Below, in pieces: positions 40,538 through 47,258 of a DNA stretch of 64,000 nucleotides. Source of the DNA: Puia sp. (GTDB lineage: Bacteria; Bacteroidota; Bacteroidia; Chitinophagales; Chitinophagaceae). Below the pieces are notes generated by a model. The model was not told the DNA's origin. It searched no databases and was given only the letters and a program-made list of their open reading frames with translations. Numbering within the stretch: the first letter of the stretch is position 1; each line of letters opens with the position of its first letter. Position numbers and translations under genes: made by a program. The stretch is taken from assembly GCA_036499285.1 (NCBI GenBank), contig DASYEB010000040.1, positions 8,151-72,150 on the forward strand, in the 5' to 3' direction.

Positions 40538-40688
40538 GGTAGTTCCCTTAATTAGTCGGGCTGTGGATAAAATAGTTGACGTTAGATACACAATTTAACG
40601 CCCTTTTTGCGTTTCTTACATGAGGCCCCTTCTTTAAATTCGTTTGAGAGGCGGAATCCAAACCATCGGAAAACTAAATCTAATATCA

Positions 40689-41663
40689 ATGAAACAGAGT
40701 TTACACTCCTTGTCATGGAAGTGTTTGTTTGTATTGGCCGCTACCTTATGTCTGAGTTCTTCTATTTACAGTCAGGAGGAGGCAAGAAACAACACGGAGA
40801 TTGGTCTGACCTTAGGACCAATGGTGTTTCTGGGTGACCTTGGAGGTCATGCCGGCAAAGGCACTACCTTTATCAAAGACTACAATATGACTACCACCAA
40901 GCTTGCGGTGGGTGCCTACGTGGCAGCGTATCCCATGCAGTGGCTGGGATTCCGGTTTTCCTTAAACTATGGCTCTATTGAAGGTGCGGACAATGAGATC
41001 AAGCCTAAGGGCGGTGATGAAGAGAGCCGTCTGGCCCGTAATCTCGATTTCCGCAGTAATATACTGGAAGGGACTGTGATGGCAGAGTTTTATCCAACCG
41101 TTTTCCTGGAAGAGGATCCGGAAGACATTACAGCCCGTCTCCGCCCTTATGGCGTGTTGGGCCTGGGATTCTTCCATTTTAAGCCCCAGGGCAGCTACAG
41201 ATCTCCTAATGGCGATACTTATTGGGTAGATCTGCAGCCGCTGCATACGGAAGGTCAAGGTTTCCCCGAATATCCCGACAGAAAGGATTACAAGCTTACA
41301 CAGCTGAATATTCCGATGGGCGTGGGTATCAAATACTTTATCAGCGAGAATGTAAATGTAGCGTTTGAGATCATCCACCGTAAGACCTTTACAGATTATA
41401 TCGATGATGTGAGTACAAAGTATGTCGATCCAAGTCTTTTCTACAAATATCTGTCCCCTTCACAGGCGCCTATTGCGGCCGCGATGGCGAATAAGACGCC
41501 CGTAGCACAGCAGGATCAGGGTTACAGACCAGGCAATAAAAGAGGCGACCCTTCTCAGAATGACGCCTACTTCACGGCACAGTTCAAGTTAGGTATTCGT
41601 CTTGGCGGCAATAGTGCGAGCCGCTGGAGAAACTCTACACACTGTCCGTTGCTGAGATTCTAA
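40689..41663 (+). CDS. Outer-membrane beta-barrel protein (PorT/DUF6089-like)
   Basis: Signal peptide ending IYS-Q; FLGDLGG, RNLDFRS, IPMGVGIKY, RKTFTDYIDDVS, RGDPSQNDAY. Confidence 0.7.
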   Translation: MKQSLHSLSWKCLFVLAATLCLSSSIYSQEEARNNTEIGLTLGPMVFLGDLGGHAGKGTTFIKDYNMTTTKLAVGAYVAAYPMQWLGFRFSLNYGSIEGADNEIKPKGGDEESRLARNLDFRSNILEGTVMAEFYPTVFLEEDPEDITARLRPYGVLGLGFFHFKPQGSYRSPNGDTYWVDLQPLHTEGQGFPEYPDRKDYKLTQLNIPMGVGIKYFISENVNVAFEIIHRKTFTDYIDDVSTKYVDPSLFYKYLSPSQAPIAAAMANKTPVAQQDQGYRPGNKRGDPSQNDAYFTAQFKLGIRLGGNSASRWRNSTHCPLLRF

Positions 41664-41780
41664 GAAAGAGTTACACGTTGTTGATCGTACTATATTTTGA
41701 TCGTTGTTTTTAGTTTGTTTTAGTTGTTGTTGTTAATCCGTACCCTATCTTTTTTATTGATTCATGAAATCAATAGTATT

Positions 41781-42218
41781 ATGGTTAAAACTGTACCCCT
41801 AAAGAAAACTTTTTTATCTCCGAAAGCGCTTACCCGCCTGGCCGCCTTTGGCCTCGCCTTATGCCTTCAAAGTAATTTTGCCTATGCTGCTGCCGGAGAT
41901 CGTGCGGTCAGCGGTCATCATCCCCCGGGTAACGATACTATCCATAGTATCCAGATCAATAAATCCCTGAGTAGCAAAAAACACAAGATCCGGCTGTATC
42001 CGGATGCCCGTCAGCAAGTGCTGTTCTTCTCTGCCAATGGAGAGAATGGAAAAGTGTATCAGTTATTCCTTTTCGACATGGATGGCAGATTAGTCGCTCA
42101 AACACAAATCCGTAACCGTGAAACAACGGTACTAACCAATATTTCTGAAGGTAATTTCCTCTTCGAGGTCTTTACCGACGACGAGCGTATTGAAAATGGA
42201 CAGTTGTTGGTAAGATGA
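41781..42218 (+). CDS. Small secreted protein consisting essentially of a T9SS type-A C-terminal sorting domain
   Basis: Signal peptide followed by IRLYPD...LFLFDMDGRLV...EGNFLFEV...LLVR, the pattern of Por secretion CTDs. Confidence 0.7.
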   Translation: MVKTVPLKKTFLSPKALTRLAAFGLALCLQSNFAYAAAGDRAVSGHHPPGNDTIHSIQINKSLSSKKHKIRLYPDARQQVLFFSANGENGKVYQLFLFDMDGRLVAQTQIRNRETTVLTNISEGNFLFEVFTDDERIENGQLLVR

Positions 42219-42256
42219 CTGTCCGGGACCGGACCCTGTCCGGTTCAAACGAACAA

Positions 42257-42386
42257 CCAATAGGCAAGCAGGGAAATTGGTAAAATCCGAATATCCGAAG
42301 GTTAAGTAAAACCTGATCCGTTCCCTATTCTAGGTACCCTTTACAAACAAAGATTTTATTAATCACTCCCTGCTGCCGCCTGTTGG
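42257..42386 (+). ncRNA. Candidate structured non-coding RNA, rod-shaped and 6S-like in topology
   Basis: Three stacked helices (9+8+12 bp) pair 42257-42287 with 42352-42386. All three non-Watson-Crick pairs are G-U on the + strand. No ORF in this intergenic gap. Confidence 0.45.
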
Positions 42387-42439
42387 AATCGCGGGGATCC
42401 GTTAACCAGACCCCACAACCCCTAACCTCTAAAAATTGA

Positions 42440-42472
42440 AACCCGCGACAAACAAGCCGCGGGTTATTTATT
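42440..42472. terminator. Intrinsic terminator between convergent units
   Basis: AACCCGCG-N11-CGCGGGTT stem followed by ATTTATTT on +; flanked by AAAAATTG on the other side. Confidence 0.65.
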
Positions 42473-42507
42473 TATGGAAGATCCCGCCTATTTGAGGAAG
42501 GTGCTGG

Positions 42508-43035
42508 CTACCTGAGAAAGATGTCCGCTGCTTCCTTCCAGTTGTTAATGCGGTCGTAGCCGGTGACCTCGAGATTATGAGCAGCGGTATAGATGTAGGG
42601 TTTCCCTTTGAAGCCCTTCAGGTTCTTTACGTGATCGTCGATCATGAAGTCGCCGAATACAAGGTCCTTACTACCGGTGAGGGCTATTTGCTTCCAGCTA
42701 AAGAAGGGGAAGTGATCCATCAACCATTCCAGCTTGTCTTTTAGGGAATTGGGAAATTCCATAGCCGCAGAGACGATAAAGACCTCGTATTGTTTGTTAA
42801 GTTCACGAAGCACGTCGACGCTGTCTTCCATCACCGTCAGATGGCGAAAGAAACCAGGAGCCTTGAGCCGTTCCATGATCATGGTCTGATGCTCTTCCGG
42901 AAAACCTTTTACCCAGGAGCCGACGAGCATTTTATCCCAGTCGACTTCGCCGCCATGTTCGGCACGATACCATTCTATCATATCACCCATAGGATCGGCG
43001 ATGACTTCGTCCATGTCGATTATAATACGTTGCAT
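42508..43035 (-). CDS. 5'(3')-deoxyribonucleotidase (HAD, NT5C family)
   Basis: IIIDMDEV (DxD), PGFFRHL, IVSAA, K...WL..HFPF, MIDDH. Confidence 0.9.
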   Translation of the reverse strand: MQRIIIDMDEVIADPMGDMIEWYRAEHGGEVDWDKMLVGSWVKGFPEEHQTMIMERLKAPGFFRHLTVMEDSVDVLRELNKQYEVFIVSAAMEFPNSLKDKLEWLMDHFPFFSWKQIALTGSKDLVFGDFMIDDHVKNLKGFKGKPYIYTAAHNLEVTGYDRINNWKEAADIFLR

Positions 43036-46950: not shown

Positions 46951-47082
46951 GTTTGTGTAGTTTTATAGGTAGAGATACTGCATCGTATGAAAGATGGTTG
47001 CCAAAAATCATTCCAAAAATGCGTTATCAGTCTGTTAAGCCCGGTGAAGCCGGAGGCGTAATCAAAATTTTTCACCACCAAA

Positions 47083-47115
47083 TTTGGAAATATGGAAACC
47101 CTGTTGTTATCTTTG
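47083..47115 (+). promoter_or_regulatory. Bacteroidota housekeeping-sigma promoter of the met operon
   Basis: TTTG at 47083-47086 (-33) and TATCTTTG at 47108-47115 (-7 consensus TAnnTTTG), 21-nt spacer, about 20 nt upstream of the riboswitch. Confidence 0.7.
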
Positions 47116-47132: not shown

Positions 47133-47258
47133 TCTCTTATCAAGAAAGGCTGAGGGAAATGGCCCAAAGAAGCCTTGACAACCTGCATTCGGTTACGGAA
47201 GTAATCGTATGTAAGGTGCCAACTCCATCCCGATGGAATATCGGGACAGATAAGTCAG
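47133..47258 (+). promoter_or_regulatory. SAM-I riboswitch aptamer
   Basis: P1 CTTATC/GATAAG, AAGA, kink-turn GCTGAGGGA..GGCCC, CAACC...AAGGTGCCAACTCC core, P4 CCCGAT/ATCGGG; upstream of methionine-pathway genes. Confidence 0.93.

Follow-up and report, generated by a model that had tools for sequence, protein, structure and literature searches.

Between the mini-protein gene up164 and a convergent NT5C nucleotidase gene, the genome of Puia sp. contains a 130-nt sequence that can fold into a long interrupted rod, and the question it raises is whether this sequence is a small RNA in its own right, a structured 3' end of the up164 messenger, or an element that acts as DNA. The initial annotation of the stretch studied here (64,000 nt, C40:8151-72150 in an assembly of 7.49 Mb and 51 contigs; hereafter the window) had proposed a 6S-like RNA or a new class of small RNA. 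Our study supports the new class, in that the element is single-copy, covarying, stranded and outside Rfam 15; of the 6S-like part of the proposal only the outer rod stands. The order of genes around the element is GNAT gene, PorG-like barrel, up164, RNA, convergent NT5C and uvrA, and the coordinates of its parts and neighbours are given in Table 1.

Table 1. Coordinates, in the window, of the rod RNA, its structural elements and the adjacent genes.
Feature	Position	Strand	Description
PorG-like DUF6089 barrel gene	40644-41663		Upstream of up164
up164 mini-protein gene	41781-42218	+	Signal peptide, T9SS type-A sorting tail; stop codon 38 nt before the rod
Rod core	42257-42386	+	P1-P4 and internal loops; conserved unit
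P1 5' arm	42257-42265	+	CCAAUAGGC; partner 42378-42386
P2 5' arm	42267-42274	+	AGCAGGGA; partner 42367-42374
P3 5' arm	42276-42287	+	AUUGGUAAAAUC; partner 42352-42363
P4, conserved apical hairpin	42299-42314	+	AGGUU-AAGUAA-AACCU; arms 42299-42303 and 42310-42314; G-A on each side
Invariant stretch	42312-42328	+	CCUGAUCCGUUCCCUAU (17 nt); 3' side of apical loop; first three bases are the end of P4
P3 3' arm	42352-42363	+	GAUUUUAUUAAU; partner 42276-42287
P2 3' arm	42367-42374	+	UCCCUGCU; partner 42267-42274
P1 3' arm	42378-42386	+	GCCUGUUGG; partner 42257-42265
Small post-rod hairpin	42391-42416	+	GGGG...CCCC, predicted fold; loop repeats GAUCCGUU; not kept in relatives
C-rich linker	42417-42439	+	ACAACCCCUAACCUCUAAAAAUUGA (CCCCACAACCCCUAACC); unpaired in MFE and centroid folds
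Intrinsic terminator	42440-42476	+	Predicted fold; hairpin 42440-42465 and AUUUAUUUAU tail
NT5C nucleotidase gene	42508-43035		Convergent, downstream of the rod

The rod consists of three helices, P1 (9 bp), P2 (8 bp) and P3 (12 bp), which stack into a 29-bp interrupted helix. All three were present in both the minimum free energy (MFE) and the centroid fold of the window copy, at the positions where the initial annotation had drawn them, and the three non-canonical pairs of this copy are indeed all G-U on the + strand. The MFE predicted for the + strand is -43.9 kcal/mol compared to -23.6 ± 3.3 kcal/mol for dinucleotide shuffles (z = -6.14), with none of 200 shuffles folding as well, whereas the minus strand has a weaker fold (z = -3.48). 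For the rod together with its 3' flank as far as the terminator (42251-42476, 226 nt), z was -5.66.

The interior of the rod proved to be organized differently from what had been suggested. A terminal stem of 10 bp (GTAAA/TTTAC plus ACCTG/TAGGT) can be drawn in the window, but 14 of the 25 sequences from the genus lack its partner columns, in half of them two positions of the stem do not pair, and no covariation is seen for it. The conserved element is instead the 5-bp hairpin P4, which is mutually exclusive with the ACCUG/UAGGU helix and is paired in 98.4% of cells in the 25 genus sequences and 93.7% in a broader set of 78. P4 sits in a strongly asymmetric bubble, with about 11 nt on its 5' side and 30-37 nt on its 3' side. 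It is on this 3' side that the most constrained part of the molecule is found: the 17-nt stretch CCUGAUCCGUUCCCUAU is without a single change in the 25 genus sequences, and its UCCGU-C-CUAU core is unchanged in all 81 sequences from several genera.

The pairing of the rod is well supported by covariation. Among the 25 genus sequences, 98.6% of cells are in standard pairs and eight pairs show compensatory double changes, while sliding the partners by one to three columns as a control reduced the paired fraction to 31-53%. When the set is widened to 78 distinct sequences and several genera, the paired fraction is 96.7% of cells and compensatory changes occur at 19 of 31 pairs, values matched by none of 500 shuffles. 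For P1-P3, where 26 of the 29 rod pairs were modelled, the paired fraction in this larger set ranges from 95.5 to 99.4% per helix: 99.4% for P1 (compensatory changes in 5/8 modelled pairs), 95.5% for P2 (8/8 pairs) and 97% for P3. A scan of all column pairs for additional covarying pairs or pseudoknots found none beyond P1-P4, since the interior of the rod is too conserved to covary.

The same alignments tell us on which strand, and in which molecule, selection acts. Within the genus, P3 varies solely by G-U/A-U and U-A/U-G exchanges; such exchanges are neutral in an RNA made from the + strand, but would create A-C mismatches on the minus strand and be disruptive in DNA, which settles both questions. 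Scores from a covariance model of the rod agree, with 68-144 bits on the + strand versus 25-37 bits on the reverse strand. The earlier reading of the G-U pairs as a sign of RNA-level selection with a direction is thus borne out by the wobble-only variation of P3 and by the model scores, and an RNA made from the minus strand, which we also considered, is ruled out by the G-U pattern and the same scores.

A long inverted repeat between convergent genes might also be a selfish or DNA-level element, such as a MITE, a REP-like palindrome or an inverted repeat bound by a protein. The number of copies is what decides this point. The rod occurs once in the Puia genome, other BLAST matches being chance similarities of 15-25 nt; the window holds no second direct-repeat copy, and the sole inverted-repeat pair touching the rod is 29 nt long with a 72% match. 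Exactly one copy is present in each of 24 other genomes of the genus (74-96% identity by BLAST), with alignments that begin and end at the ends of the rod. Its syntenic position is fixed in more than 100 genomes, phage and plasmid records contain no match to it, and variation confined to G-U exchanges makes sense solely in RNA and on one strand. A MITE or REP-like repeat is refuted for practical purposes by the copy number, and we consider any DNA-level explanation extremely improbable. Many dispersed copies and a lack of covarying homologues had been named at the outset as the observations that would speak against an RNA; what we found is a single copy with covariation.

Conservation of the rod extends to loci that were chosen independently of it. 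When 80 loci were retrieved through the neighbouring outer-membrane-protein gene alone, the rod model matched 77 of them, always on the same strand and in a constant relative position; the three loci left unmatched include one that is cut short and one from Hanamia (L109). Compared with the window copy, the rods of the genus have a mean nucleotide identity of 85%, as against 63% for the up164 coding sequence and 42% for the downstream DNA. On this comparison, the rod is shown to be under purifying selection at the RNA level that is stronger than the selection on the adjacent coding sequence.

The related loci that carry the RNA belong to Puia, Flavitalea, Pseudobacter, Flavihumibacter and other Chitinophagaceae. 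With lax filters, the model had no match in 12 other Chitinophagaceae genomes or in eleven other families of the order, and with strict filters 200 additional genomes from the order and 400 from the class gave none outside the clade. The searches show an RNA that, among the genomes covered, is confined to a clade of Chitinophagaceae made up of Puia, Flavitalea, Pseudobacter, Flavihumibacter and their allies. It does not correspond to a catalogued family either. The only match of Rfam 15 (4227 models) in the window at gathering score is a SAM riboswitch, with none at the rod; nothing meaningful was found in the rod region at E <= 10, and no family matched five full-length relatives at E <= 1. 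The comparison with Rfam that the initial annotation had recommended, with 6S and 6S-Flavo among the models, thus returned no family for the rod even at E <= 10. Our literature searches retrieved descriptions of Bacteroidota 6S RNAs and promoters (PMC9723704, PMC7366714, PMC2864571), in which this RNA was not found. From the comparative evidence, the rod is a real RNA family and a new one, absent from Rfam 15 and without a description that we could find in the searchable literature.

The genomic setting of the RNA is as constant as its fold. The up164 protein ends in a sorting tail that matches TIGR04183 (Por_Secre_tail) at 24.1 bits for a cut-off of 23, and protein identity is as low as 33% among members of the genus and about 22% when neighbouring genera are compared. 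The barrel-up164-RNA order was kept in 29/29 loci tested, with a convergent uvrA gene downstream in most, sometimes with NT5C between, and in all 81 loci the rod starts 10-60 nt past the stop codon of the mini-protein gene, on the same strand. In Hanamia L109 (4511-4675), a convergent uvrA gene lies about 160 nt after the outer-membrane-protein gene, and the mini-protein gene and the RNA are both missing; this joint absence fits the gain or loss of the two as one unit. In three loci of another genus (g26; L149-L151), the site between the outer-membrane-protein gene and uvrA contains a conserved CCCCUGAAACCAC string and a terminator in all three, and in L149 and L150 the syntenic site has a membrane mini-ORF of about 65 amino acids (MKNGL...) instead. 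A different small RNA may occupy the same slot in these genomes.

Such a tight association with a coding sequence raises the possibility that the rod is nothing but a 3' UTR structure of the T9SS mini-protein mRNA, acting in cis and with no life of its own, which would protect the message from 3' exonucleases, bind a factor for stability or localisation, or insulate it from convergent uvrA/NT5C transcription. The placement of the rod shortly after a stop codon, on the strand of the gene, in every locus, the intrinsic terminator after the rod and the joint absence at the Hanamia locus all agree with this idea, as do the transcription signals. Across 81 loci, the last 50 nt ahead of the rod contain a single sigma-A box (TAnnTTTG), 80 of the loci having none, and TA..TTT-like boxes gather before the mini-protein gene instead. 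In the window, the spacer that precedes up164 (41664-41780) contains TAGTTTGT and TATCTTTT boxes that resemble the TAnnTTGY (SM5) and TAnnTTTG elements of Flavobacterium, and these are likely to be the promoter of the mini-protein/RNA unit. Elsewhere in the window, a textbook Bacteroidota promoter, TTTG-N19-TATCTTTG (about 47075-47097), precedes the SAM-I riboswitch (47134-47256, 79.8 bits). As no TAnnTTTG box separates up164 from the rod, the simplest view for this genome is that the mini-protein mRNA ends in the RNA. Its position is that of a 3' UTR-derived small RNA, past a stop codon, with no promoter between and an intrinsic terminator at its end, and we think it most likely that it is made as, or behind, the 3' end of this mRNA in Puia, from which it may be released.

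Several observations nevertheless speak against such an exclusive role in cis. At the nucleotide level, the RNA has changed far less than the gene on whose behalf it would act (85% compared with 63% identity), and 17 invariant loop nucleotides exceed the needs of a stabilizing hairpin. In two other genera (G106 and G118), a second, shorter tandem paralogue is found 45-130 nt behind the first copy of the RNA, and not behind a coding sequence. These second copies, at L037 1343-1456 (-) and L038 1761-1859 (+), keep P2/P3-like arms, UAUCCGG and GGUACCC, and lack P1 and the invariant stretch. In G106 (L037), a U7 run comes immediately after the first copy, and the second has a closing helix of its own. 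Both second copies follow an AAG(C/T)TCTTT-N8-CATAAC motif (AAGCTCTTT...CATAAC in G106), and their location behind a motif of their own argues that the RNA can stand as its own gene. In about 25 of the 81 loci, whose spacers after the stop codon are longer, the AAG(C/T)TCTTT motif also occurs 18-20 nt upstream of the rod, and in some relatives a hairpin and a promoter-like motif part the gene from the rod. The shared upstream motif suggests that the RNA has its own promoter in the relatives with longer spacers and for the tandem second copy. On balance, a role limited to the 3' UTR in cis is doubtful, albeit with real points in its favour.

The upstream motif itself is not restricted to this RNA. 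Its extended form, AAG(C/T)TCTTT-N7-9-(C/T)ATAA(C/T), precedes the rod in, for example, L061, L066, L097 and L104, the second copies in L037 and L038, and another rod-shaped RNA at L132 (see below). A Flavobacteriaceae form, A(A/C)GTTC(T/A)TT, precedes eight of nine 6S-Flavo genes (L122-L129 among the loci), so that unrelated rod RNAs have the motif in common, about 18-30 nt ahead of the closing helix; a tRNA-Gly gene (C18:100098) and a cobalamin-riboswitch-like leader (C8) are likewise preceded by it. The motif differs from the TAnnTTTG sigma-A box and corresponds to no known Bacteroidota promoter. It is possible that this motif is a promoter element for stable RNAs.

Downstream of the rod, the window contains a small hairpin, an unpaired C-rich linker and an intrinsic terminator, from which a transcript reaching the terminator would be at least about 220 nt long. 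This terminator is probably the 3' end of the RNA, and by its predicted fold it can be bidirectional and common to the convergent NT5C gene. The loop of the small hairpin repeats the first eight bases of the invariant stretch (GAUCCGUU). The hairpins that the initial annotation had noted on either side of the rod (42228-42244 and 42393-42414), and the terminator after them, all exist in the window, but the flanking hairpins are not kept in relatives. The sequence of a possible TCGCGGG/CCCGCGA antiterminator pairing is likewise not kept in relatives. At the position of the linker, close relatives have strings that resemble CCCCUAACCCC or CCCCACAACC, and more distant ones have UAUCCUCAG.

The wider set of loci gives an idea of how this 3' region may have evolved. 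A + strand terminator is found within 150 nt of the rod in 52/81 loci, and 40/81 share a conserved 3' module composed of a short hairpin (YUGG...CCAR) with covarying arms, a UAUCCUCAG linker and a terminator of the form AGCCGGC-GAUGAGUAAUU-GCCGGCU followed by a U tract. The stem of this terminator, for which the 40 module carriers provide 37 distinct sequences, is 98.4% paired with compensatory changes in six of ten pairs, and its loop is conserved. The module appears to belong to a longer ancestral unit, which would have diverged to the C-rich stretch and a different terminator in the sub-clade of the window. The interval between rod and terminator is not kept across the clade, being C-rich in Puia and UAUCCUCAG in the other members, which argues against a conserved base-pairing seed in this region.

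The closing of the rod by a long interrupted helix formed from its 5' and 3' ends, with an internal bubble, is also a hallmark of 6S RNA. If the RNA were the 6S RNA of this clade or its analogue, the rod would mimic open promoter DNA, sequester the sigma-A holoenzyme and be released by pRNA synthesis. It resembles 6S (RF00013), 6S-Flavo (RF01685) and Bacteroidales-1 (RF01693), labelled in Rfam 15 as a suggested 6S RNA of Bacteroidales, in being a single-copy rod of the 110-200-nt class with a closing helix and a bubble, and every Puia genome has it once. The 6S slot of the genome moreover looks empty: neither RF00013 nor RF01685 has a match in the whole genome at E <= 10, nor RF01693 at E <= 1, and the scattered 20-26-bit matches to RF01693 elsewhere in the genus leave no 6S-type match that is convincing. 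The rod RNA is present in 24/24 Puia genomes and three neighbouring genera, and the genomes without it also show no clear 6S-type match. Some members share a similar AAGTTCTTT-type upstream motif with 6S-type RNAs, since it precedes the rod in about 25 relatives, eight of nine 6S-Flavo genes and the Bacteroidales-1-like RNA of L132 at a similar distance, and in one relative the closing stem is directly followed by a U run, as in 6S-Flavo.

The details of the molecule are harder to reconcile with a 6S function. No 6S-type covariance model matches at the rod (E <= 10), and the ACUCAAC...GGAGUUU sequences common to 6S-Flavo and Bacteroidales-1 are absent. The conserved helix past the bubble has 5 bp, well under the roughly 15 bp looked for and too short to mimic upstream promoter DNA, the longer terminal stem drawn earlier is not conserved, and the bubble is strongly asymmetric. 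An alternative partner for the GGGAA of the P2 5' arm is the invariant UUCCC, with which it could pair in 93.6% of cells, reminiscent of how 6S RNA rearranges on release; in 20 of 78 sequences, however, there is a mismatch in the middle of this pairing, which shows a single double change. Lastly, the rod RNA is missing from the 12 other Chitinophagaceae genomes and all other families sampled, a narrow distribution that would not be expected of a housekeeping RNA, and it is tied to the 3' end of a protein gene, whose stop codon it closely follows. An identity as 6S RNA or its analogue is, in our view, quite unlikely.

The searches for 6S RNAs led to two side results. Matches to the 6S-Flavo model are confined to Flavobacteriaceae, save two weak candidates in other Chitinophagales families, at L131 1501-1649 (-) and L132 665-846 (+), which match 6S-Flavo (38 bits) and Bacteroidales-1 (40 bits), respectively. 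Both fold into long rods with ACUCAAC and GAUUAC motifs, and they are probably divergent 6S RNAs of these two families. A 6S-Flavo-like RNA elsewhere in the Puia genome was sought with the regular expression ACUCAAC...GGAGUUU and by BLAST with the L131 and L132 sequences, and rejected, the matches all looking like coding sequence.

With respect to better-known RNAs, the closest parallel in location is provided by the 3' UTR-derived small RNAs of Enterobacteria, such as CpxQ (from cpxP), SroC (gltI) and DapZ (dapB). These are RNAs of 60-100 nt, mostly unstructured 5' of the terminator, that use a conserved single-stranded seed and Hfq. Like them, the rod RNA lies directly past a stop codon on the same strand, ends at a terminator that it would share with the mRNA, is conserved beyond the parent coding sequence, and has a parent gene from the sphere of the cell envelope. 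It differs from them in being conserved as a 130-nt stack of helices with an invariant internal loop, in that the stretch next to the terminator is its least conserved part, and in its occurrence in Bacteroidota, which to our knowledge have no Hfq, ProQ or CsrA. In the way it is defined, it comes nearer to the orphan structured-RNA motifs obtained by comparative genomics, of which 104 candidates were reported by Weinberg et al. (2010; PMC2864571): these too are defined by covariation and synteny alone, are lineage-restricted and have no known function. The rod RNA is not among them, however, and neither the window copy nor the full-length relatives match Rfam 15.

Together, we consider it reasonably probable that the locus is the gene, or the gene-terminal domain, of an uncatalogued structured small RNA encoded on the + strand and acting in trans through its invariant apical module. 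According to this model, the up164 mRNA would be transcribed through the rod to the terminator, with the RNA as its 3' end, possibly released from it. The P1-P3 helices would serve as scaffold and protection, and the invariant, largely unpaired apical module would be the putative working surface, most plausibly as a docking site for a protein partner; pairing of this module with another RNA is the less likely alternative. Complements of the invariant stretch occur in the genome at chance level, with no obvious target in an assembly that is devoid of the 16S 3' end. The RNA would then act in trans, in a regulatory or titrating manner, probably in the cell-envelope/T9SS context of its host gene. 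It should be kept in mind that a 3' UTR element acting in cis would account equally well for the very short spacer and for the strict inheritance of the RNA together with up164.

The RNA biology of Bacteroidota is poorly charted, and few of their small RNAs have known partners. The RNA described here merits an entry in Rfam, the more so as annotation pipelines now leave the locus blank. It is compact and easy to assay, with its strong covariation, its invariant 17-nt loop and its fixed link to a T9SS mini-protein gene, and cultured hosts exist (Puia, Flavitalea) in which its partner and function can be sought. A bolder reading, and an unlikely one, is that the rod RNA and the gene for the cargo-less T9SS mini-protein form one unit specifying a new ribonucleoprotein or regulatory module of the envelope, or else that the RNA is a 6S analogue built on a different plan. 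Such an analogue would have a long closing helix, a very small hairpin at its apex and an invariant strand on the 3' side of the bubble, and the common AAGTTCTTT upstream motif would then mark a type of promoter for stable RNAs in Bacteroidota. Should the partner of the rod RNA be RNA polymerase, the 6S gap of the Chitinophagaceae would be filled; should it be another protein, the locus would provide a new RNA-protein pair.
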